A stretch of 64,000 nucleotides of DNA, taken from the NCBI RefSeq assembly GCF_044647545.1, contig NZ_CP172818.1; one strand, written 5' to 3'. The position numbers were made by a program, and so were the translations under genes. Shown in pieces: positions 1,304 to 64,000 of this stretch. Every line of letters starts with the position of its first letter. The stretch's first letter is position 1. The notes below the pieces were generated by a model. That model did no database searches and was not told where the DNA came from. It was given only the letters and a program-made list of their open reading frames with translations. This stretch comes from Escherichia coli (lineage in GTDB: Bacteria > Pseudomonadota > Gammaproteobacteria > Enterobacterales > Enterobacteriaceae).

Positions 1304-2553
<1,250 letters not shown>

Positions 2554-2626
2554 GTGAGGCACTCGGTTATGAATTACCGCGATGCTACAATGTGGCGCGA
2601 AGAATGTTAACCCTCTGGAGCGTTTT

Positions 2627-5056
2627 GTGTCGTCGTTGCCCGTTGCTGCCGTCTTACCTGAGTTACTTGCTGCCCTCGATGGTGCATCGCAGGTGTTATT
2701 AAGTGCGCCGACCGGGGCCGGGAAATCAACCTGGCTGCCGCTGCAACTGCTGGCGCATCCAGGCATTAACGGGAAAGTTATCCTGCTGGAGCCGCGTCGT
2801 CTGGCGGCGCGTAACGTTGCGCAACGACTGGCGGAGCTGCTTAACGAAAAGCCAGGCGATACCGTTGGCTACCGGATGCGTGCGCAAAACTGCGTCGGGC
2901 CGAATACCCGCCTGGAAGTGGTTACCGAAGGCGTGCTGACGCGGATGATCCAGCGTGACCCGGAACTGAGCGGTGTTGGATTGGTGATCCTTGATGAATT
3001 TCATGAGCGCAGCTTGCAGGCGGATTTGGCGTTGGCGCTGTTACTCGATGTGCAACAAGGTCTGCGTGATGACCTTAAACTGCTGATTATGTCGGCTACG
3101 CTGGACAACGACCGCTTGCAGCAAATGCTGCCAGAAGCGCCCGTCATCATCTCAGAAGGGCGCTCGTTTCCGGTTGAACGCCGTTATTTACCGCTGCCCG
3201 CGCATCAGCGTTTTGACGAAGCCGTTGCGGTAGCCACCGCCGAAATGCTGCGTCAGGAAAGCGGATCATTACTGTTATTTTTACCTGGCGTCGGAGAAAT
3301 TCAGCGTGTGCAGGAACAACTGGCTTCGCGCATCGGCAGTGATGTGTTGCTCTGCCCGCTGTATGGCGCGTTGTCGCTGAACGATCAGCGAAAAGCGATC
3401 CTCCCGGCACCGCAAGGGATGCGCAAAGTGGTGCTGGCGACCAATATTGCTGAAACCAGTTTAACCATTGAAGGTATTCGTCTGGTGGTGGATTGTGCCC
3501 AGGAGAGGGTGGCGCGTTTTGATCCGCGTACAGGGCTTACGCGGTTGATTACTCAACGCGTTAGTCAGGCGTCGATGACGCAACGTGCCGGGCGTGCCGG
3601 GCGTCTGGAGCCGGGTATCTGCCTGCATTTAATCGCCAAAGAACAAGCCGAACGCGCCGCGGCGCAAAGTGAACCGGAAATATTACAAAGCGATCTCTCC
3701 GGTTTGCTGATGGAATTACTGCAATGGGGATGCAGCGATCCTGCGCAGATGAGCTGGCTGGATCAACCGCCAACGGTGAATCTACTGGCCGCGAAACGCC
3801 TGTTACGGATGCTGGGGGCGCTGGACGGTGAACGGCTTAGTGCGCAAGGGCAAAAAATGGCAGCGCTGGGTAACGATCCGCGTTTAGCGGCAATGCTGGT
3901 TAGCGCGAAGAACGACGACGAAGCTGCTACCGCGGCAAAAATTGCCGCCATTCTCGAAGAGCCGCCACGGATGGGCAATAGTGACCTGGGCGTGGCGTTT
4001 TCGCGCAATCAACCCGCCTGGCAGCAACGTAGTCAGCAACTGTTAAAACGCTTAAACGTACGCGGCGGTGAGGCAGACAGTTCGCTTATCGCGCCGCTAC
4101 TTGCCAGAGCGTATGCCGATCGCATTGCTCGTCGCCGTGGGCAAGATGGACGCTATCAACTGGCGAACGGCATGGGGGCGATGCTCGATGCCGACGATGC
4201 GCTAAGCCGCCACGAATGGTTGATCGCACCGTTATTATTGCAGGGCAGCGCCTCGCCGGATGCGCGGATTTTACTGGCGCTACCGGTCGATATTGATGAG
4301 TTAGTACAACGCTGCCCGCAGCTGGTACAGCAATCGGACACCGTGGAGTGGGATGACGCGCAAGGTACGCTGAAAGCCTGGCGTCGGCTGCAAATCGGTC
4401 AGTTGATGGTGAAAGTGCAGCCACTGGCGAAACCCTCGGAAGACGAGTTGCATCAGGCGATGCTTAACGGCATTCGTGATAAAGGTTTAAGCGTGCTCAA
4501 CTGGACGGCGGAAGCGGAACAGTTACGCTTGCGTTTGTTATGCGCCGCAAAGTGGTTGCCGGAATATGACTGGCCAGCGGTTGATGATGAGAGTTTGTTG
4601 GCGACGCTGGAAACGTGGCTACTGCCGCATATGACAGGCGTACATTCGCTACGCGGCTTGAAATCACTCGATATTTATCAGGCACTGCGTGGATTACTTG
4701 ATTGGGTAATGCAGCAACGTCTGGATAGTGAATTGCCTGCGCATTACACTGTGCCGACGGGAAGCCGGATCGCCATTCGTTATCATGAAGATAACCCGCC
4801 CGCGCTGGCGGTGAGAATGCAGGAGATGTTTGGCGAGGCCACCAATCCGATGATCGCCCAGGGGCGCGTGCCGCTGGTGCTGGAGTTGCTTTCCCCTGCC
4901 CAAAGGCCGCTGCAAATCACGCGTGATTTGAGCGCCTTCTGGAAAGGAGCGTACCGTGAGGTGCAAAAAGAGATGAAAGGGCGTTATCCCAAACATGTCT
5001 GGCCGGACGACCCGGCAAACACCGCACCGACGCGACGAACGAAAAAGTATTCGTGA
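2627..5056 (+). CDS. hrpB: ATP-dependent RNA helicase HrpB (DEAH-box), ~809 aa
   Basis: Walker A SAPTGAGKST, DEFH motif (ILDEFHERS), SAT motif; probable GTG start at 2627 (VSSLPVAAVLPELL), ORF track start 2582 is an extension. Confidence 0.9.
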   Translation: MSSLPVAAVLPELLAALDGASQVLLSAPTGAGKSTWLPLQLLAHPGINGKVILLEPRRLAARNVAQRLAELLNEKPGDTVGYRMRAQNCVGPNTRLEVVTEGVLTRMIQRDPELSGVGLVILDEFHERSLQADLALALLLDVQQGLRDDLKLLIMSATLDNDRLQQMLPEAPVIISEGRSFPVERRYLPLPAHQRFDEAVAVATAEMLRQESGSLLLFLPGVGEIQRVQEQLASRIGSDVLLCPLYGALSLNDQRKAILPAPQGMRKVVLATNIAETSLTIEGIRLVVDCAQERVARFDPRTGLTRLITQRVSQASMTQRAGRAGRLEPGICLHLIAKEQAERAAAQSEPEILQSDLSGLLMELLQWGCSDPAQMSWLDQPPTVNLLAAKRLLRMLGALDGERLSAQGQKMAALGNDPRLAAMLVSAKNDDEAATAAKIAAILEEPPRMGNSDLGVAFSRNQPAWQQRSQQLLKRLNVRGGEADSSLIAPLLARAYADRIARRRGQDGRYQLANGMGAMLDADDALSRHEWLIAPLLLQGSASPDARILLALPVDIDELVQRCPQLVQQSDTVEWDDAQGTLKAWRRLQIGQLMVKVQPLAKPSEDELHQAMLNGIRDKGLSVLNWTAEAEQLRLRLLCAAKWLPEYDWPAVDDESLLATLETWLLPHMTGVHSLRGLKSLDIYQALRGLLDWVMQQRLDSELPAHYTVPTGSRIAIRYHEDNPPALAVRMQEMFGEATNPMIAQGRVPLVLELLSPAQRPLQITRDLSAFWKGAYREVQKEMKGRYPKHVWPDDPANTAPTRRTKKYS

Positions 5057-10935: not shown

Positions 10936-11825
10936 TGAGCGGCTTACCTCTTATTTCGCGCCGTCGACTGTTAACGGCGATGGCGCTTTCTCCGTTGTTA
11001 TGGCAGATGAATACCGCCCACGCGGCGGCTATTGATCCCAATCGTATTGTGGCGCTGGAGTGGTTGCCGGTGGAATTACTGCTGGCGCTCGGCATCGTGC
11101 CTTACGGCGTGGCGGATACCATCAACTATCGCCTGTGGGTCAGCGAACCGCCATTGCCGGACTCAGTGATTGACGTTGGTTTGCGTACAGAACCTAACCT
11201 TGAACTGCTGACCGAAATGAAACCATCGTTTATGGTCTGGTCGGCAGGATATGGCCCTTCACCAGAAATGCTGGCACGTATTGCGCCGGGTCGCGGATTT
11301 AACTTCAGTGACGGCAAACAGCCGCTGGCGATGGCGCGTAAATCACTGACGGAAATGGCAGATTTACTTAACCTGCAAAGCGCAGCAGAAACGCATTTAG
11401 CGCACTATGAAGACTTTATCCGCAGCATGAAACCCCGCTTTGTGAAGCGTGGTGCACGCCCGTTATTGCTGACGACACTTATCGATCCGCGCCATATGTT
11501 GGTCTTCGGTCCAAACAGCCTGTTCCAGGAAATTCTTGATGAGTACGGCATCCCAAATGCCTGGCAAGGGGAAACCAACTTTTGGGGCAGTACCGCCGTC
11601 AGTATCGATCGTCTGGCAGCGTATAAAGACGTTGATGTGCTCTGTTTTGATCACGACAACAGCAAAGACATGGATGCGCTAATGGCAACCCCGCTGTGGC
11701 AGGCCATGCCGTTTGTCCGCGCCGGACGCTTTCAGCGCGTTCCGGCGGTCTGGTTCTATGGTGCGACGCTTTCTGCAATGCACTTTGTGCGTATTCTGGA
11801 TAACGCCATCGGAGGTAAAGCGTGA
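10935..11825 (+). CDS. fhuD: ferric hydroxamate periplasmic binding protein (296 aa)
   Basis: MSGLPLISRRRLLTAMALSPLLWQMNTAHAAAIDPNRIVALEW...; ATGA overlap with fhuC stop. Confidence 0.93.
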   Translation: MSGLPLISRRRLLTAMALSPLLWQMNTAHAAAIDPNRIVALEWLPVELLLALGIVPYGVADTINYRLWVSEPPLPDSVIDVGLRTEPNLELLTEMKPSFMVWSAGYGPSPEMLARIAPGRGFNFSDGKQPLAMARKSLTEMADLLNLQSAAETHLAHYEDFIRSMKPRFVKRGARPLLLTTLIDPRHMLVFGPNSLFQEILDEYGIPNAWQGETNFWGSTAVSIDRLAAYKDVDVLCFDHDNSKDMDALMATPLWQAMPFVRAGRFQRVPAVWFYGATLSAMHFVRILDNAIGGKA

Positions 11826-13804
11826 GTAAACGAATTGCGCTTTTTCCGGTGTTATTGCTGGTGCTGCTGGTGGTTGCTGCTGCGGCGTTGACCTGGATGA
11901 ACTTCTCGCAGGCGCTGCCGCGCAGCCAGTGGGCGCAGGCCGCCTGGTCGCCGGATATTGACGTCATCGAGCAGATGATTTTTCACTACAGCTTGTTGCC
12001 GCGTCTGGCGATTTCGCTGCTGGTGGGCGCGGGCCTGGGGATGGTGGGCGTGCTGTTTCAGCAAGTGCTGCGTAACCCGCTGGCGGAACCGACGACGTTG
12101 GGTGTTGCAACAGGCGCGCAACTGGGGATTACCGTCACCACGCTCTGGGCGATCCCAGGTGCTATGGCGAGCCAGTTTGCTGCGCTGGCAGGGGCTTGTG
12201 TTGTTGGCTTAATCGTCTTTGGCGTCGCGTGGGGGAAACGGCTTTCGCCGGTAACGCTGATCCTCGCGGGGCTGGTAGTGAGCCTTTATTGCGGCGCAAT
12301 CAATCAGTTACTGGTTATCTTCCATCATGACCAACTGCAAAGCATGTTCCTGTGGAGCACCGGAACGCTGACGCAAACCGACTGGGGCGGCGTTGAGCGT
12401 TTATGGCCGCAGCTGCTGGGCGGCGTGATGCTGACGTTATTGCTACTTCGCCCGTTAACCCTGATGGGGCTTGATGATGGCGTGGCGCGCAATCTCGGGC
12501 TGGCCTTGTCGCTCGCGCGTCTGGCGGCGTTGTCGCTGGCGATTGTCATCAGTGCGCTGCTGGTGAACGCGGTGGGGATTATCGGCTTTATCGGGTTGTT
12601 CGCGCCGCTGCTGGCAAAAATGCTGGGGGCGCGGCGTCTGCTGCCACGGTTAATGCTGGCGTCGCTGATTGGTGCGTTAATTCTGTGGCTTTCTGATCAA
12701 ATCATCCTCTGGCTGACTCGCGTGTGGATGGAAGTTTCCACCGGTTCGGTCACTGCGTTGATCGGTGCGCCGCTGTTACTGTGGTTGCTGCCGCGTTTAC
12801 GCAGCATTAGCGCGCCGGATATGAAGGTGAACGATCGTGTCGCGACTGAACGCCAACACGTGCTGGCGTTTGCCCTCGCGGGCGGCGTGCTGCTGTTGAT
12901 GGCTGTGGTGGTGGCGCTGTCGTTTGGTCGTGATGCGCACGGCTGGACGTGGGCGAGCGGGGCGTTGCTCGAGGATTTGATGCCCTGGCGCTGGCCGCGA
13001 ATTATGGCGGCGCTGTTTGCTGGCGTCATGCTGGCGGTGGCGGGCTGTATTATTCAGCGGCTGACCGGAAACCCGATGGCAAGCCCGGAAGTGCTGGGGA
13101 TTAGCTCCGGCGCGGCGTTTGGCGTGGTGTTAATGCTGTTTCTGGTGCCGGGTAATGCCTTTGGCTGGCTGTTACCCGCAGGCAGTCTCGGGGCGGCGGT
13201 GACGCTGTTGATCATTATGATCGCCGCCGGACGCGGTGGATTTTCCCCACACCGCATGTTACTGGCGGGGATGGCGTTAAGTACCGCGTTCACGATGCTT
13301 TTGATGATGTTGCAGGCAAGTGGTGACCCGCGAATGGCGCAAGTTCTGACCTGGATTTCCGGTTCGACCTACAACGCGACCGAGGCGCAGGTCTGGCGCA
13401 CGGGAATTGTGATGGTAATTTTGCTGGCGATTACCCCGCTGTGCCGCCGCTGGCTGACCATTTTACCGCTGGGCGGTGATACCGCACGAGCCGTGGGGAT
13501 GGCGCTGACGCCGACGCGAATTGCGCTGCTGCTGTTAGCGGCTTGCCTGACAGCGACTGCGACAATGACCATTGGACCGTTGAGTTTTGTTGGTTTAATG
13601 GCACCGCATATTGCGCGGATGATGGGCTTTCGACGGACGATGCCGCATATTATGATTTCGGCGCTGGTGGGTGGTTTACTGCTGGTGTTCGCTGACTGGT
13701 GTGGGCGGATGGTGCTGTTTCCATTCCAGATCCCAGCGGGGCTGCTGTCGACCTTTATCGGCGCGCCGTATTTTATCTATTTGTTGAGAAAGCAGAGCCG
13801 TTAA
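11822..13804 (+). CDS. fhuB: ferric hydroxamate ABC transporter permease (660 aa, duplicated permease domains)
   Basis: 660-aa hydrophobic ORF, 4-bp overlap with fhuD. Confidence 0.93.
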   Translation: MSKRIALFPVLLLVLLVVAAAALTWMNFSQALPRSQWAQAAWSPDIDVIEQMIFHYSLLPRLAISLLVGAGLGMVGVLFQQVLRNPLAEPTTLGVATGAQLGITVTTLWAIPGAMASQFAALAGACVVGLIVFGVAWGKRLSPVTLILAGLVVSLYCGAINQLLVIFHHDQLQSMFLWSTGTLTQTDWGGVERLWPQLLGGVMLTLLLLRPLTLMGLDDGVARNLGLALSLARLAALSLAIVISALLVNAVGIIGFIGLFAPLLAKMLGARRLLPRLMLASLIGALILWLSDQIILWLTRVWMEVSTGSVTALIGAPLLLWLLPRLRSISAPDMKVNDRVATERQHVLAFALAGGVLLLMAVVVALSFGRDAHGWTWASGALLEDLMPWRWPRIMAALFAGVMLAVAGCIIQRLTGNPMASPEVLGISSGAAFGVVLMLFLVPGNAFGWLLPAGSLGAAVTLLIIMIAAGRGGFSPHRMLLAGMALSTAFTMLLMMLQASGDPRMAQVLTWISGSTYNATEAQVWRTGIVMVILLAITPLCRRWLTILPLGGDTARAVGMALTPTRIALLLLAACLTATATMTIGPLSFVGLMAPHIARMMGFRRTMPHIMISALVGGLLLVFADWCGRMVLFPFQIPAGLLSTFIGAPYFIYLLRKQSR

Positions 13805-13857
13805 TTTTTCCATATAACGGCCCTTAACTCCTGGATGGATAAAGCTTTTACGCGGCA

Positions 13858-13950
13858 ACGGATGCCCGATGCGACGCTGTGGCGTCTTATCGGGCCTACA
13901 AACGGTCCTGATCTGTAGGTCGGATAAGGCGTTTACGCCGCATCCGACAA
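13858..13950. repeat. BIME: two REP palindromic units between convergent fhuB and hemL
   Basis: gcccgatgcgacgctgtggcgtcttatcgggcctac ... gtaggtcggataaggcgtttacgccgcatccgac; matches REP consensus GCCGGATGCGGCG..CTTATCCGGCCTAC. Confidence 0.8.
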
Positions 13951-13961
13951 ACCATGCTGGA

Positions 13962-15242
13962 TCACAACTTCGCAAACACCCGACGTGCAGCATCGATGGT
14001 GTTATTGATATCTTCCATGCTGTGCGCTACAGACATAAAGCCCGCTTCAAACGCTGATGGTGCCAGGTAAACACCTTCATCCAGCATCATATGGAAGAAA
14101 CGCTTAAAGCGTTCCACGTCACAGGCCATTACATCCTGATAGCACGTCACGGACTCGGCGTCGGTAAAGAAAATACCGAACATGCCGCCAACGTGGTTAA
14201 CGACCAGCGGAATTCCGGCTTCTTCTGCCGCTTCCAGCAGACCTTCTGCCAGACGTGTTGTCAGCTCATCCAGCGTTTCGTGAACGCCCGGCTGTGCGAC
14301 TTCATTCAGACAGGCGAAACCGGCCGCCATCGCAATCGGGTTACCGGAAAGCGTACCCGCCTGATAGACCGGACCAGTCGGGGCCAGCGCATCCATTACA
14401 TCACGACGACCACCGAATGCGCCTACCGGCATTCCACCGCCGATGATTTTGCCGAGGCAGGTTAAATCTGGCACTACGCCGTAATAATCCTGTGCGCCAG
14501 CTAGCGCTACGCGGAAACCGGTCATCACTTCATCGATGATCAGCAACGCGCCAAATTCGTCACACAGCGCACGCAGACCTGGCAGGAACTCTGGCAGCGG
14601 CGGAACACAGTTCATATTGCCTGCCACCGGCTCGACGATAATACAGGCAATCTCTTGCGGGTATTGCTCAAACGCGGCGCGTACAGAAGCCAGATCGTTA
14701 TAAGTACAGGTTAAGGTATGTTTGGCGAAATCTGCCGGAACGCCCGGCGAATTTGGCTGGCCTAACGTGAGTGCGCCAGAACCGGCTTTCACCAGCAGGC
14801 AGTCAGCGTGACCGTGGTAACAACCTTCAAATTTAATGATTTTGTCGCGACCGGTAAAACCACGGGCCAGGCGGATGGCGCTCATCGTCGCTTCAGTGCC
14901 GGAGTTCACCATGCGCACCATATCCATGGTCGGGACCAGTTCGGTCACCAGTTGCGCCATTTTCACTTCCATTTCGGTTGGTGCACCAAAGCTTAAACCA
15001 CGCTCGGCGGCTTCAATCACGGCATTGCGGATCGCCGGATGGTTATGGCCCAGCACCATCGGCCCCCAGGAACCGACATAATCGATATAGGCTTTGCCAT
15101 CAACATCGTACAGATAAGCGCCGTCCGCTTTTTCGATAAACAGTGGAGTGCCGCCCACGCCAGTAAAGGCGCGAACAGGGGAGTTCACACCGCCAGGGAT
15201 CAGCTCGCGCGCTGCGCTGTAAAGATTTTCAGACTTACTCAT
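13962..15242 (-). CDS. hemL: glutamate-1-semialdehyde 2,1-aminomutase (426 aa)
   Basis: [26 protein letters not shown]...; PLP aminotransferase class III motifs. Confidence 0.95.
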
Positions 15243-17314: not shown

Positions 17315-17326
17315 TCTGTTGTTCAT

Positions 17327-17349
17327 GTGCCGGATAAACTATCCGGCAC
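17327..17349. terminator. bidirectional hairpin terminator between convergent erpA and yadS
   Basis: gtgccggat-aaact-atccggcac perfect stem. Confidence 0.55.
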
Positions 17350-17360
17350 ATCTTCTCTCT

Positions 17361-21198: not shown

Positions 21199-21243
21199 AG
21201 AACACAGCAATTTTGCGTTATCTGTTAATCGAGACTGAAATAC

Positions 21244-22668
21244 ATGAAAAAAACCACATTAGCACTGAGTGCACTGGCTCTGAGTTTAGGTTTGGCGTTA
21301 TCTCCGCTCTCTGCAACGGCGGCTGAGACTTCTTCAGCAACGACAGCCCAGCAGATGCCAAGCCTTGCACCGATGCTCGAAAAGGTGATGCCTTCAGTGG
21401 TCAGCATTAACGTAGAAGGTAGCACAACCGTTAATACGCCGCGTATGCCGCGTAATTTCCAGCAGTTCTTCGGTGATGATTCTCCGTTCTGCCAGGAAGG
21501 TTCTCCGTTCCAGAGTTCTCCGTTCTGCCAGGGTGGCCAGGGCGGTAATGGTGGCGGCCAGCAACAGAAATTCATGGCGCTGGGTTCCGGCGTCATCATT
21601 GATGCCGATAAAGGCTATGTCGTCACCAACAACCACGTTGTTGATAACGCGACGGTGATTAAAGTCCAACTGAGCGATGGCCGTAAGTTCGACGCGAAGA
21701 TGGTTGGCAAAGATCCGCGCTCTGATATCGCGCTGATCCAGATCCAGAACCCGAAAAACCTGACCGCAATTAAGATGGCGGATTCTGATGCACTGCGCGT
21801 GGGTGATTACACCGTAGCGATTGGTAACCCGTTTGGTCTGGGCGAGACGGTAACTTCCGGGATTGTCTCTGCGCTGGGGCGTAGCGGCCTGAATGCCGAA
21901 AACTACGAAAACTTCATCCAGACCGATGCAGCGATTAACCGTGGTAACTCCGGTGGTGCGCTGGTTAACCTGAACGGTGAACTGATCGGTATCAACACCG
22001 CGATCCTCGCACCGGACGGCGGCAACATCGGTATCGGTTTTGCTATCCCGAGCAACATGGTGAAAAACCTGACCTCGCAGATGGTGGAATACGGCCAGGT
22101 GAAACGCGGTGAGTTGGGTATTATGGGCACTGAGCTGAACTCCGATCTGGCGAAAGCGATGAAAGTTGACGCCCAGCGCGGTGCTTTCGTAAGCCAGGTT
22201 CTGCCGAATTCTTCCGCCGCGAAAGCGGGCATTAAAGCGGGTGATGTGATCACCTCACTGAACGGTAAGCCAATCAGCAGCTTTGCCGCACTGCGTGCTC
22301 AGGTGGGCACTATGCCGGTAGGTAGCAAACTGACCCTGGGCTTATTGCGCGACGGGAAGCAGGTTAACGTGAACCTGGAACTTCAGCAGAGCAGCCAGAA
22401 TCAGGTTGATTCCAGCACCATCTTCAACGGCATTGAAGGCGCTGAGATGAGCAACAAAGGCAAAGATCAGGGCGTGGTAGTGAACAACGTGAAAACGGGC
22501 ACTCCGGCTGCGCAGATCGGCCTGAAGAAAGGTGATGTGATTATTGGCGCGAACCAGCAGGCAGTGAAAAACATCGCTGAACTGCGTAAAGTTCTCGACA
22601 GCAAACCGTCTGTGCTGGCACTGAACATTCAGCGCGGCGACAGCACCATCTACCTGTTAATGCAGTAA
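21244..22668 (+). CDS. degP: periplasmic serine endoprotease/chaperone DegP (HtrA), 474 aa
   Basis: Signal peptide MKKTTLALSALALSLGLALSPLSATA; catalytic GNSGGAL; two PDZ domains. Confidence 0.96.
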   Translation: MKKTTLALSALALSLGLALSPLSATAAETSSATTAQQMPSLAPMLEKVMPSVVSINVEGSTTVNTPRMPRNFQQFFGDDSPFCQEGSPFQSSPFCQGGQGGNGGGQQQKFMALGSGVIIDADKGYVVTNNHVVDNATVIKVQLSDGRKFDAKMVGKDPRSDIALIQIQNPKNLTAIKMADSDALRVGDYTVAIGNPFGLGETVTSGIVSALGRSGLNAENYENFIQTDAAINRGNSGGALVNLNGELIGINTAILAPDGGNIGIGFAIPSNMVKNLTSQMVEYGQVKRGELGIMGTELNSDLAKAMKVDAQRGAFVSQVLPNSSAAKAGIKAGDVITSLNGKPISSFAALRAQVGTMPVGSKLTLGLLRDGKQVNVNLELQQSSQNQVDSSTIFNGIEGAEMSNKGKDQGVVVNNVKTGTPAAQIGLKKGDVIIGANQQAVKNIAELRKVLDSKPSVLALNIQRGDSTIYLLMQ

Positions 22669-52382: not shown

Positions 52383-53681
52383 ATGACACTCACGCTCAAT
52401 AGACAACTTCTCTCCTCACGCCAGATTCTGGTGGCCTTTAGCGGCGGGCTTGACTCCACCGTTCTGCTGCATCAGTTGGTGCAGTGGCGGACGGAAAATC
52501 CGGGCGTCACTCTACGCGCTATCCATGTGCATCACGGTTTAAGTGCCAATGCCGATGCCTGGGTTAGGCATTGCGAGAACATCTGCCAACAGTGGCAGGT
52601 GCCGCTGGTGGTCGAGCGCGTGCAACTTGCGCAAGAAGGACTGGGCATTGAGGCCCAGGCGCGGCAGGTGCGTTATCAGGCATTTGCTCGTACCCTGTTA
52701 CCCGGTGAAGTGCTGGTCACCGCGCAACATCTCGACGATCAATGTGAAACCTTTCTGCTGGCGCTAAAACGCGGTAGCGGCCCTGCCGGGCTTTCGGCTA
52801 TGGCGGAAGTCTCGGAGTTTGCCGGAACGCGGCTTATCCGCCCGTTGCTCGCCCGCACGCGGGGAGAACTGGTGCAGTGGGCGCGTCAGTATGATTTACG
52901 CTGGATTGAAGACGAAAGTAATCAGGATGATAGCTACGATCGTAACTTCCTGCGCCTGCGCGTGGTGCCGTTATTGCAGCAGCGTTGGCCGCATTTTGCC
53001 GAAGCAACGGCCCGCAGCGCTGCGCTTTGCGCTGAACAAGAGAGCCTGTTAGATGAACTGCTGGCGGATGATATAGCGCACTGTCAAAAGCCGCAGGGGA
53101 CGCTGCAGATTGCGCCAATGCTGGCGATGAGTGATGCCCGCCGCGCGGCGATTATCCGCCGCTGGCTGGCAGGGCAGAATGCACCGATGCCTTCCCGCGA
53201 CGCGTTGGTGAGGATCTGGCAGGAAGTGGCGCTGGCGCGGGAAGATGCTTCCCCCTGTTTACGTCTGGGCGCGTTTGAAATCCGCCGCTATCAGTCGCAA
53301 CTGTGGTGGATTAAATCCGTTGCCGGGCAAAGCGAAACCATTGTGCCGTGGCAGACGTGGCTACAACCGCTGGAATTACCGGCGGGACTGGGAAGTGTAC
53401 AGCTTACTGCGGGAGGCGATATTCGCCCTCCGCGTGCAGACGAAGCGGTCAGCGTGCGTTTCAAAGCGCCAGGATTGCTGCATATTATCGGGCGCAACGG
53501 CGGACGTAAGCTGAAGAAAATCTGGCAAGAGCTGGGTGTGCCGCCGTGGCTACGTGACACCACGCCACTGCTGTTTTATGGCGAAACGTTGATTGCGGCG
53601 GCAGGGGTATTTGTGACGCAAGAAGGTGTGGCTGAAGGTGAGAATGGCGTCAGTCTTGTCTGGCAGAAAACGCTTAGTTAA
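52383..53681 (+). CDS. tilS: tRNA(Ile)-lysidine synthetase (432 aa)
   Basis: [54 protein letters not shown] (PP-loop SGGLDS). Confidence 0.93.
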
Positions 53682-53687
53682 GTGAAA

Positions 53688-53720
53688 GCCGGATAAGACG
53701 CTTCAAACGTCGCATCCGGC
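53688..53720. repeat. single REP-like palindromic unit between convergent tilS and rof
   Basis: gccggataagacgcttcaaacgtcgcatccggc. Confidence 0.65.
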
Positions 53721-53729
53721 GAAAGTCAA

Positions 53730-53984
53730 TCAGGACTCGCTCACCACCACCGTACCAATTTCCGGGTGGCTAAAGCTGGTAATTTTATCCAGACGTAGCT
53801 CGCGGGTTTCGCCAGCAGCTTCGACGACCAGATATTCCACATTTTTGCGGGAGACTAAATCGCTGGCCTTCCCCTGCAGTTTTTCGCCATCTTTCAGCTC
53901 AAGTGTCAGCATTAAATGATGCTGGCAGGCGAGCTCAAGATTATCGTAATCATCACAATTGATTGGTTGATACGTATCATTCAT
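53730..53984 (-). CDS. rof: Rho-binding antiterminator Rof (84 aa)
   Basis: [71 protein letters not shown]. Confidence 0.88.
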
Positions 53985-54177
53985 TGACATAATCGCTCAC
54001 CAGTAAGTTTGCCGCAGCGTATGCTGCTTTTTCCCTGACAGCCTCAGAAAGGGCATCGTCGGCAGCCATTTCATTCAGCACTTTCAAAACGCAGCCCAGC
54101 GCGTCCGGAACGTATCCTAAGTCTCCGCTGGCGATTTCCGCGTACCGCTTGCGTATTAACTCACAATATTTTTCCAC
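53977..54177 (-). CDS. yaeP: UPF0253 protein YaeP (66 aa), probable GTG start
   Basis: (M)[65 protein letters not shown]; overlaps rof start. Confidence 0.8.
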
Positions 54178-55320: not shown

Positions 55321-56031
55321 ATGGTGAAAAAAGCGATAGTGACAGCGATGGCTGTAATCAGCCTCTTTACTCTGATGGGATGTAATAATCGGGCCGAAGT
55401 CGATACGCTTTCTCCGGCACAGGCTGCCGAACTGAAACCGATGCCGCAAAGTTGGCGCGGCGTGCTGCCGTGTGCTGATTGCGAAGGAATCGAAACCTCT
55501 CTGTTCCTCGAAAAAGACGGAACCTGGGTGATGAATGAGCGTTATCTGGGGGCTCGTGAAGAACCTTCCTCCTTCGCTTCCTACGGTACATGGGCGCGAA
55601 CCGCTGACAAGCTGGTATTAACCGATAGCAAAGGTGAAAAGTCATATTATCGCGCGAAAGGAGATGCGCTGGAGATGCTCGATCGTGAAGGTAATCCGAT
55701 TGAATCGCAGTTCAACTATACGCTGGAACCGGCACAATCCAGCTTACCCATGACACCGATGACCCTGCGGGGCATGTATTTTTATATGGCTGATGCGGCG
55801 ACCTTCACTGATTGCGCGACCGGAAAACGTTTCATGGTGGCGAATAACGCAGAGCTGGAGCGTGGCTACCTGGCTGCGCGCGGTAACAGTGAAAAACCGG
55901 TGTTACTGTCAGTAGAAGGTCACTTTACGCTTGAGGCTAATCCGGATACCGGTGCGCCGACCAAAGTATTAGCGCCCGATACGGCAGGTAAATTTTACCC
56001 AAACCATGATTGCAGTAGTTTGGGGCTGTAA
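55321..56031 (+). CDS. nlpE: outer-membrane lipoprotein NlpE (Cpx envelope-stress sensor), 236 aa
   Basis: MVKKAIVTAMAVISLFTLMGCNN (lipobox LMGC), CxxC motif PCADCEG. Confidence 0.92.
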   Translation: MVKKAIVTAMAVISLFTLMGCNNRAEVDTLSPAQAAELKPMPQSWRGVLPCADCEGIETSLFLEKDGTWVMNERYLGAREEPSSFASYGTWARTADKLVLTDSKGEKSYYRAKGDALEMLDREGNPIESQFNYTLEPAQSSLPMTPMTLRGMYFYMADAATFTDCATGKRFMVANNAELERGYLAARGNSEKPVLLSVEGHFTLEANPDTGAPTKVLAPDTAGKFYPNHDCSSLGL

Positions 56032-56061
56032 CCCGTCTTGAGACAGAAACAAATGAAATAT

Positions 56062-56162
56062 TGCCTCATGCGCTGCGCTTATCAGGCCTAAAGCATACAA
56101 TGCAATATTTTGAATTAGCACAATTTTGTAGGCCGGATAAGGCGTTCACGCCGCATCCGGCA
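56062..56162. repeat. BIME: two palindromic units (REP) between convergent nlpE and yaeF
   Basis: tgcctcatgcgctgcgcttatcaggcctaaag ... gtaggccggataaggcgttcacgccgcatccggca. Confidence 0.8.
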
Positions 56163-56186
56163 TTTTGCGCACGAGGCTGGCTTTTA

Positions 56187-57011
56187 TCACTGAGTCAGCC
56201 CAACAAAGCGGCCTGCCTTGATATAAATCCCAGGCTTCATGTGCCCAACATACTGTAACTGCGTTTCTGGCTTAAACGCAGAGATATCGCCAGTACGCAT
56301 ATGCATCAGATCGGCAGGGCTAATCCAGCCTGATTGCGCCAGCGTAAGCGGATGCCCGGCTTTGGCAAATGCATCAGTGACAAATTCCGAACAAAACCAC
56401 GACTTTTTGTCTCCTTCGCCAACGTTACTTAACTGTGCTTTCGCCAGGCCGCTGACGCACTGTTGACGAAAATCCTCGGAGAATGGATTTAGTGAGCACA
56501 TCTGGCGAGTCACCATAAATGGAATAAATTCGACAATGCCGCGATAGTTGTAACCGCTATCTTTAATTTTGTTGGCGAACGCGGTGATTTCTGTGGCTTG
56601 TTGCGGGGTAAGATCCGGGACTCGTAAGACGAAAAGCTTATCACTATGCTTTATGGCTTTTTTAAGGGAAACAATCTGGACGCCAGCGCCTGTCGCTTCG
56701 GCAACGTTGTTATCTCCCAAATAGATTGCAACGTGACTCACAGAGGAAGTGCTGAATACGCGGATACCAAATGAGGTTACCCCAAGGCTTGAGGAGAAAA
56801 GCAAATCGCCGGGTTTGAGATCTGGTTCCGTTATTTCTTTTATTGATTGTTCGGTGAAAGAGCTTTGATGCTGGAATTTAACAGCCCATGTTTTCGCCTC
56901 GGCATTTACCACTGTGGCTGATGAGTCTGGCTGGCTGATATCAACGGTACAGGCCGAAAGTACAAGAAAGCAGGGGAGAAGCAGGCGGCAGTACGCCTTT
57001 GGTTTATCCAT
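56187..57011 (-). CDS. yaeF: NlpC/P60-family (permuted papain-fold) lipoprotein YaeF, 274 aa
   Basis: MDKPKAYCRLLLPCFLVLSACTVDISQPD...; start chosen at the internal Met of the 277-aa ORF. Confidence 0.82.
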   Translation of the reverse strand: MDKPKAYCRLLLPCFLVLSACTVDISQPDSSATVVNAEAKTWAVKFQHQSSFTEQSIKEITEPDLKPGDLLFSSSLGVTSFGIRVFSTSSVSHVAIYLGDNNVAEATGAGVQIVSLKKAIKHSDKLFVLRVPDLTPQQATEITAFANKIKDSGYNYRGIVEFIPFMVTRQMCSLNPFSEDFRQQCVSGLAKAQLSNVGEGDKKSWFCSEFVTDAFAKAGHPLTLAQSGWISPADLMHMRTGDISAFKPETQLQYVGHMKPGIYIKAGRFVGLTQ

Positions 57012-57063
57012 TTTATACAATCCATGTAAAAAAGGGCCCCGAAATTCAGGACCCTTTCTGGCA

Positions 57064-61627: not shown

Positions 61628-62651
61628 AACCCAGTACCTCTACTTTTACATGGTGTTCCTGCAGCCAGGCAATGGCGGCTTGCGTATCTTGTTGTGTACC
61701 GTGCATTTCAGTCAGCATGATGCCGAACTTAACGCCACCGGCGTAATCCATCTGCGCACTAATAATGTTGTTGTTGACGTTGAAACGACGCGCGGTTTCA
61801 GAAAGCAGCGGGGCATCAACCGATTGACCGGTAAACTCCAGACGCAGCATTGGCACGCAGTCAGCGAATGGTTCCGCTTGCAGACGTTCTTGATAATCTT
61901 CCGGGATATCCAGATGCAGGGTCGACTGAATAAACTTCTGCGCCAGCGGCGTTTTCGGATGCGAGAACACTTCACTTACCGTGTCCTGCTCGATCAACTC
62001 GCCATTACTGATCACCGCCACGCAATCACAAATGCGCTTCACAACGTCCATTTCGTGGGTGATCAACAGAATCGTCAAACCCAGACGACGATTGATGTCT
62101 TTCAGCAGTTCGAGAATAGAACGTGTCGTTGCCGGGTCCAGCGCGCTGGTGGCTTCATCACACAGCAATACTTTGGGATTGCTGGCTAATGCACGGGCAA
62201 TCGCCACACGTTGTTTCTGCCCACCGGAAAGATTCGACGGGTAGCTATCATGCTTATCGCCAAGACCAACCAATGACAGCAATTCCGTCACGCGACGTTT
62301 GATCTCGTCTTTCGGTGTGTTGTCCAGCTCCAGCGGCAGAGCAACGTTGCCAAAAACAGTACGCGAAGAGAGCAGGTTAAAATGCTGGAAAATCATACCA
62401 ATCTGGCGACGAGCTTTGGTCAACTCGGATTCTGACAGCGTGGTCAGTTCCTGGCCATCGACCAGCACGCTACCCTCGGTTGGGCGCTCCAGCAGGTTTA
62501 CACAACGTATAAGCGTACTCTTACCCGCGCCTGAGGCACCGATAACGCCATAAATTTGTCCAGCTGGCACATGCAGGCTGACGTTGTTCAACGCCTGGAT
62601 GGTGCGGGTGCCCTGGTGGAACACTTTGGTGATATTCGAAAGTTTTATCAT
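61620..62651 (-). CDS. metN: D/L-methionine ABC transporter ATP-binding protein (343 aa)
   Basis: [62 protein letters not shown]; [15 protein letters not shown]; C-terminal NIL domain; overlaps metI start. Confidence 0.95.
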
Positions 62652-63776: not shown

Positions 63777-64000
63777 AAATTGAAGAGTTTGATCATGGCT
63801 CAGATTGAACGCTGGCGGCAGGCCTAACACATGCAAGTCGAACGGTAACAGGAATCAGCTTGCTGATTCGCTGACGAGTGGCGGACGGGTGAGTAATGTC
63901 TGGGAAACTGCCTGATGGAGGGGGATAACTACTGGAAACGGTAGCTAATACCGCATAACGTCGCAAGACCAAAGAGGGGGACCTTCGGGCCTCTTGCCAT
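63777..64000 (+). rRNA. rrsH: 16S ribosomal RNA, 5' 224 nt (continues beyond window)
   Basis: aaattgaagagtttgatcatggctcagattgaacgctggcggcaggcctaacacatgcaagtcgaacggtaacagga... canonical enterobacterial 16S 5' end; operon assigned as rrnH by position after gmhB. Confidence 0.95.

Follow-up and report, generated by a model that had tools for sequence, protein, structure and literature searches.

Imperfect palindromes stand at three convergent gene junctions in a chromosomal segment of Escherichia coli, which raises the question of whether they belong to the dispersed REP/BIME family, what type of element occupies each junction, and how far these elements are fixed or changeable between strains. 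The REP and BIME repeats have been known since the 1980s. The analysed stretch of DNA (64 kb, hereafter the window) is near K-12 but not identical to it, keeps the K-12 gene order from dksA to the start of rrsH, and matches strains such as FDAARGOS_497 at 100% identity in the pieces that were tested. Gene names were taken from the RefSeq annotation under the matches, and they agree in name and orientation with those given in a preliminary description of the window, which was made from the sequence alone. The three junctions are as follows.

fhuB/hemL: fhuB 11822-13804 (+), hemL 13962-15242 (-); convergent, spacer of 157 nt
tilS/rof: tilS 52383-53681 (+), rof 53730-53990 (-); convergent, spacer of 48 nt
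nlpE/yaeF: nlpE 55321-56031 (+), yaeF 56187-57020 (-); convergent, spacer of 155 nt

Membership in the REP family was approached in two ways. The 34-nt REP consensus proposed in the preliminary description, searched with at most 3 mismatches, matched the window twice, at 13915-13948 (-) with 2 mismatches and at 56128-56161 (-) with 0 mismatches, as compared with 0 matches in 100 shuffled sequences. Since no curated REP features were present in the copy of the K-12 RefSeq annotation examined, an independent REP set was built from four 50-kb regions of K-12 (200 kb), all far from the window. Probes for the Y, Z1 and Z2 types, each 100% identical to real K-12 copies and equal to the three REP queries of PMC11208160 barring one or two flanking bases, located 20 REP units in this unrelated DNA. 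In the alignment of these 20 units 95.9% of the cells are paired, 3 pairs vary in a compensatory manner, and the slid controls all fall far short of this hairpin. A covariance model (R1) built from the 20 units and run on the whole window with filters off returned exactly five significant matches, the next best sequence scoring 12.1 bits (E=0.12).

56128-56162 (-): 61.5 bits, E=4e-19
13915-13949 (-): 59.1 bits, E=3e-18
13863-13899 (+): 51.8 bits, E=1e-15
53684-53721 (-): 33.0 bits, E=5e-9
56062-56091 (+): 23.8 bits, E=9e-6

All five matches lie inside the three ranges previously proposed, with two, one and two units at fhuB/hemL, tilS/rof and nlpE/yaeF, respectively, so that the presence of REP/BIME units in the window is confirmed, and all five align with a REP set assembled independently of the window. 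The sites have the properties of the REP (PU) family with its y, z1 and z2 types: they are imperfect palindromes of 30-38 nt, extragenic (all REP units of the window are intergenic) and present in high copy, and the internal G.T / C-T stem irregularity is seen in four of the five. In 5,425 of 5,426 complete E. coli genomes the fhuB/hemL and nlpE/yaeF BIME sequences have at least 40 matches per record, and 24 BLAST matches to these two sites were found within the 200 kb of unrelated K-12 DNA. Four units are 89-100% identical to the consensus of their type, and three keep the GTAG/CTAC foot (13896-13899, 13915-13918 and 56128-56131). Two units depart from the family pattern. The hybrid unit at tilS/rof has a longer loop, a Y-like outer stem, a Z2-like inner stem and GAAA in place of GTAG, whereas the Z1 unit at nlpE/yaeF carries three destabilising point changes and ends in CTAA. 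The term canonical, used of all units before, is hence appropriate for three of the five; it does not suit the tilS/rof unit, which is without GTAG, or the Z1 unit with its stem mismatch and CTAA.

The fhuB/hemL junction carries a single BIME-2 pair, composed of a Z2 unit, an S linker and a Y unit, plus a dead third Y unit.

13829-13857 (-): decayed third Y-type REP unit, without 7 nt (TTGCATC) of the 3' stem arm
13858-13862: tail-to-tail linker ACGGA, 5 nt, between the decayed Y and the Z2 unit
13863-13899 (+): Z2-type REP unit TGCCCGATGCGACGCTGTGGCGTCTTATCGGGCCTAC, ending in CTAC, with ATCGGGCCTAC at 13889-13899
13900-13914: head-to-head S linker AAACGGTCCTGATCT, 15 nt
13915-13949 (-): Y-type REP unit, GTAGGTCGGATAAGGCGTTTACGCCGCATCCGACA on the + strand, 2 mismatches to the consensus

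The Z2 unit has 89% identity with the Z2 consensus and folds into a hairpin of -22.5 kcal/mol (z=-5.9), and for the Y unit the hairpin energy is -19 kcal/mol on either strand (z about -5.7). As in BIME-2 elements, the two units are inverted and head to head, and the S linker has the length and the AAA..G..CC pattern of the K-12 fre-fadA BIME-2. A short tail-to-tail linker, resembling ACAGA of the K-12 hcxB-ybiJ BIME, leads to a further Y unit. BIME-2 elements usually occur as tandem multiple copies (PMC3333891), unlike the one intact pair and the dead unit found here. The decayed unit was not detected by model R1 over the window; it appeared in within-window repeat finding as a 67% match to the Y unit, and the 113-nt BLAST alignment with the K-12 hcxB-ybiJ Y-s-Z2 BIME starts at 13833. 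Its 7-nt deletion is seen against E. coli SCPM-O-B-8794, whose third unit is intact, and is common to K-12 and Escherichia sp. E1V33. As a separate observation, the segment 13889-13899 of the Z2 unit is an exact match to ATCGGGCCTAC, the sequence encoded by the target loop of the wild-type IS621 bridge RNA (PMC11208160). The definitions of BIME-1, BIME-2 and their linkers used throughout are those of PMC3333891.

The element at nlpE/yaeF is a BIME-1, with a decayed Z1 unit, an L linker carrying an IHF-like site, and a Y unit. Elements of this type are also named RIP or RIB.

56062-56091 (+): decayed Z1-type REP unit, with a G-to-C change in the stem, CTGCG for CTACG and CTAA for CTAC
56092-56127: AT-rich L linker, 36 nt, collinear with those of three K-12 BIME-1 elements
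56103-56115 (-): IHF-consensus-like site ATTCAAAATATTG, a 12/13 match to WATCAANNNNTTR
56128-56162 (-): Y-type REP unit, GTAGGCCGGATAAGGCGTTCACGCCGCATCCGGCA on the + strand, 0 mismatches to the consensus

The likeness to BIME-1 lies in the single inverted Z1/Y pair, in the collinear 36-nt L linker, and in the predicted IHF-like site at a conserved position; an IHF site is a known component of the L linker of BIME-1 (PMC3333891). The position of the candidate site is the same as in two of the three K-12 BIME-1 linkers, the third K-12 L linker giving no match to the IHF consensus, and the background expectation for such matches is 0.03 per 44 nt. The element differs from the type in its 12/13 IHF motif and in its decayed Z1 arm, which has 93% identity with the Z1 consensus and folds no better than shuffled sequence (-6.8 kcal/mol, z=-0.18); in the orthologue of strain ECOR29 this stem is intact. 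The hairpin of the Y unit is about -21 kcal/mol on both strands. K-12 differs at this junction and is atypical, having an L remnant, Y, Z2 and a partial Y. Within the Z1 unit of the window, positions 56081-56091 read ATCAGGCCTAA, with one mismatch to the natural IS621 target.

The tilS/rof junction carries a solitary, degenerate REP.

53684-53721 (-): solitary REP unit filling most of the 48-nt spacer, with GAAA instead of GTAG

Its hairpin is predicted at -18.4 kcal/mol for the + strand and at -21.5 kcal/mol for the - strand (z about -5.1). By blastn the unit was not found as a repeat, and it was detected by the structure-aware model alone. It has 1 mismatch to K-12 within the unit, the site is of constant length in 5,417 of 5,426 E. 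coli genomes, and the unit is fixed in the species.

The REP units had also been described as the only repetitive DNA in the window, which does not hold. The segment 63565-64000, comprising the rrsH start and about 210 nt of upstream leader, is the beginning of a multi-copy rrn operon with 93% identity to the rrnA operon start (63777-64000 is the 5' end of the 16S rRNA according to Rfam), and the decayed third REP at 13829-13857 was not included in the previous count. Repeat finding within the window turned up the REP family alone. BLAST of the window against the 200 kb of unrelated K-12 DNA gave no matches beyond rrn, the REPs and metN/glnQ paralogy, in a comparison that samples about 4% of a genome and could therefore overlook low-copy repeat families; a search for the ERIC repeat core gave 0 matches. 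Several candidates were rejected: i) 62132-62244 reflects coding paralogy between the metN and glnQ ABC-transporter ATPases (73% DNA similarity to K-12 glnQ); ii) the erpA/yadS hairpin (E=0.12) shares just the 8-nt outer stem with REPs and is unique sequence; and iii) the cdaR/yaeH hairpin has E=0.44. At the erpA/yadS convergent junction (17325-17351) there is a perfect 12-bp hairpin ATGTGCCGGATAaacTATCCGGCACAT of -18.3 kcal/mol, invariant in length in 5,424 genomes. The cdaR/yaeH convergent junction (23981-24040) is dimorphic: the window has the short spacer with a hairpin GCCGGGT...ACCCGGC, and in about 62% of sampled genomes, including K-12 (24122-24209), the spacer is about 35 bp longer and consists of unrelated sequence containing CATTCCCCTC...GAGGGGAATG. 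Besides the rRNA, Rfam recognised just two RNA elements in the window, both expected from K-12, namely the t44 (tff) RNA upstream of rpsB (30086-30172) and the HtrA (degP) 5' UTR thermometer (21204-21249).

Comparison among strains and species reveals that two of the three junctions are variable. The fhuB/hemL BIME allele is present in 1,701 of 5,425 complete E. coli genomes (31%), and the other genomes are about 125 bp shorter at this place. The short allele (69%) has a 34-bp spacer with a plain hairpin GCCTCGCCC-ggt-GGGCGAGGC. We also noted that the hairpin of this REP-less allele, GCCTCGCC...GGCGAGGC, aligns collinearly with the spacer found in three Citrobacter species. The junction was compared across species by a pattern search for the hemL C-terminus in genome contigs, which yielded 31 loci, including the following.

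E. albertii, fhuB/hemL junction: BIME-2 with 2 units
Escherichia sp. E1V33, fhuB/hemL junction: 2 units and the same decayed third unit
E. coli representative, fhuB/hemL junction: 3 units
E. whittamii, hemL/fhuB junction (3695-4097 of its locus): 10 tandem units, alternating Y and Z2

The number of units ranges from 2 to 10 across Escherichia species and is 0 in REP-less E. coli strains, and Salmonella and most Citrobacter have their own REP-like pairs at the same junction. Between the BIME and plain-hairpin alleles the whole spacer is replaced, without a clean insertion, and the flanking genes of the two allele classes show no extra divergence. Since the REP-less allele holds a different hairpin that is collinear with Citrobacter, the dimorphism points to allelic replacement over insertion or excision. 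The BIME itself is old and not a recent arrival, because it is shared with other Escherichia and the third-unit deletion is common with E1V33; both alleles are judged to be old because both occur across species. In this sense the two alleles look trans-specific.

At nlpE/yaeF we observed at least five architectures, with length classes of 461, 505, 499, 479, 439 and 335 bp in addition to IS-carrying alleles. Apart from the stated genome counts, the shares below refer to 60 evenly spaced rows of the ranked genomes.

Window type, 439-461 bp: 2,170 genomes (about 40%)
K-12 type, 499-506 bp, lacking Z1 and carrying an additional Z2 and part of a Y: about 35% of rows
479-bp form: 1 row
Empty form, 30-bp spacer with a hairpin GAAAGCCGGAG-catt-CTCCGGCTTTC: about 8% of rows
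IS1397 form, strain ZLWT, IS in the Y-unit loop with a GTT target duplication: 1 row
Right-flank-only matches, from query position 209-225: about 13% of rows

Insertion of IS621 in the Z1 unit at ATCAGGCCT^AC was confirmed in the two strains examined (ECOR29 and M19); the same break point is shared by about 13% of the evenly sampled genomes, two of which were inspected. The insertion occupies the CT core of ATCAGGCCTAC, and this point is the published natural target of IS621 (PMC11208160). The regions concerned are 3240-4700 of the ZLWT locus for IS1397 and 1700-3010 of the ECOR29 locus for IS621. As at fhuB/hemL, the REP-less alleles of this junction have a plain GC-rich hairpin at the equivalent place.

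These differences make the earlier statement that the sites are not mobile elements too strong, considering the presence and absence of the fhuB/hemL BIME, the several nlpE/yaeF architectures, the IS1397 and IS621 insertions, and the RAYT literature. REPs are substrates of a dedicated transposase-like enzyme, TnpA_REP (RAYT), which requires GTAG and the stem mismatch and has been shown in vitro to bind substrates of this kind and to cleave them (PMC3333891). Units in which GTAG/CTAC is preserved (13863-13899, 13915-13949 and 56128-56162) are potential substrates of this enzyme, and they are also potential targets of the REP-specific elements IS1397 and IS621; such a role of GTAG/CTAC units fits the structural variation at fhuB/hemL and nlpE/yaeF. 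One might go further and regard the three sites as active non-autonomous mobile elements, similar to REPIN pairs, that were mobilised by RAYT and transposed in recently. Presence/absence and copy-number variation at two junctions, GTAG/CTAC and the stem mismatch preserved in three units, and the in vitro activity of TnpA_REP (PMC3333891) are in line with this, as is the resemblance of inverted GTAG-bearing pairs with population-level variation in number to REPIN-RAYT systems. We nevertheless consider recent active transposition improbable. The fhuB/hemL BIME also occurs in E. albertii, E. whittamii and Escherichia sp. E1V33; alleles without REPs are not just vacant sites, as they carry a different hairpin; the tilS/rof unit is fixed and without GTAG; and the window contains no RAYT gene. 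REPIN-RAYT systems differ from the present case, with its old cross-species alleles and no evidence of recent movement. The variation between strains is compatible with movement and equally explained by recombination, and it could reflect recombination or allelic replacement rather than transposition.

A further possibility concerning the dimorphic junctions is that the BIME cassette and the plain hairpin are interchangeable alleles at convergent junctions, which persist across species as functionally equivalent modules and are not neutral. We rate this proposal as unlikely, and mention that the fhuB/hemL dimorphism could represent a long-lived, possibly balanced polymorphism or repeated allelic exchange of 3'-end modules.

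Returning to the identification of the sites as REP/BIME elements, their location is informative with respect to function. Of the roughly 56 gene junctions of the window five are convergent, and REP loci occupy three of these five, as had been pointed out for convergence in the preliminary description, and the hypergeometric probability that all three fall at convergent junctions is about 4e-4. For four of the five units the hairpin energies lie between -18 and -22.5 kcal/mol on either strand, with z from -4.6 to -5.9. The distances between stop codons and stems are as follows.

tilS, 6 nt; rof, 9 nt; hemL, 13 nt from stop codon to stem
yaeF, 25 nt; nlpE, 30 nt; fhuB, 59 nt from stop codon to stem

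Upon read-through from either convergent gene, the palindromes are predicted to form, on both strands, stable hairpins in the RNA (-18 to -22 kcal/mol). REP RNA hairpins have been reported to protect upstream mRNA and to mark 3' ends (PMC3333891), and by analogy the hairpins described here would block 3'-to-5' exonucleases and so mark the 3' ends of the mRNAs. Ribosome stalling has been described for REPs within 15 nt of a stop codon (Liang et al., as cited in PMC12306157), and the REPs near the tilS, rof and hemL stops may stall terminating ribosomes and reduce expression. Gyrase cleavage is over-represented in BIME-2 elements, where Y units are favoured over Z2 (PMC6379681), and DNA gyrase is likely to act at the Y unit of the fhuB/hemL BIME-2; a likely IHF site is present in the L linker of the nlpE/yaeF BIME-1. 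These functions, transferred from the literature about other REPs, are the most likely ones at the three sites.

The proposed role at transcript 3' ends is plausible, and no intrinsic terminator was detected at the three junctions: a simple hairpin-plus-T-tract scan gave no terminator-like site within 13600-14200, and none of the sites found between 53500 and 56400 is within the tilS/rof or nlpE/yaeF spacers. This bears on the view that the palindromes are local terminator hairpins that merely resemble REPs and are not members of a dispersed family. Bidirectional terminators are expected at convergent junctions, and the other two convergent junctions of the window indeed carry plain GC-rich hairpins that obtained the next-best scores (17327-17349 and 23998-24024). 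The plain hairpins reach 12 bits, however, versus 24 to 62 bits for the REP units, which lack U-tracts, possess the family-specific G.T / C-T irregularity and GTAG, recur in at least 40 similar places per genome, and account for the 24 BLAST matches from unrelated K-12 DNA. The local-terminator reading is already refuted for four units, and as an account of the sites it is very hard to credit.

That the REP regions contain genes of their own, for small proteins or for a small RNA, is close to inconceivable, since the overlapping mechanical ORFs that could speak for it, 13676-13993 (-) of 105 aa, 13869-14057 (+) of 62 aa and 56061-56258 (+) of 65 aa, cross the repeats, run antisense through neighbouring genes and are spurious, while most strains lack these regions or have them in rearranged form, Rfam, which has no family for such elements, gave no match at the REP sites, and the RefSeq annotation under the matches holds nothing there.

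As a whole, the observations are very probably best explained by the combination of REP/BIME family identity, the likely 3'-end, gyrase and IHF functions suggested by the literature, and RAYT- and IS-related dynamics. The interpretation offered in the preliminary description is partly supported. The three sites are ordinary known elements with textbook architecture, and they behave as the literature predicts; the refinements made here are the BIME-1, BIME-2 and solitary assignments, the recognition of the decayed third unit and the decayed Z1 unit, and the corrected statements on repeats and mobility.

The alternation of BIMEs and plain hairpins shared across species is mildly interesting as a low-probability lead, not as a result. 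For annotation, the sites can be labelled BIME-2 (fhuB/hemL), solitary REP (tilS/rof) and BIME-1 (nlpE/yaeF). The junctions are hotspots both for structural differences between strains and for insertion of the REP-specific elements IS1397 and IS621, and in this respect they are relevant for comparative genomics and for predicting the natural landing sites of the IS621 bridge recombinase.
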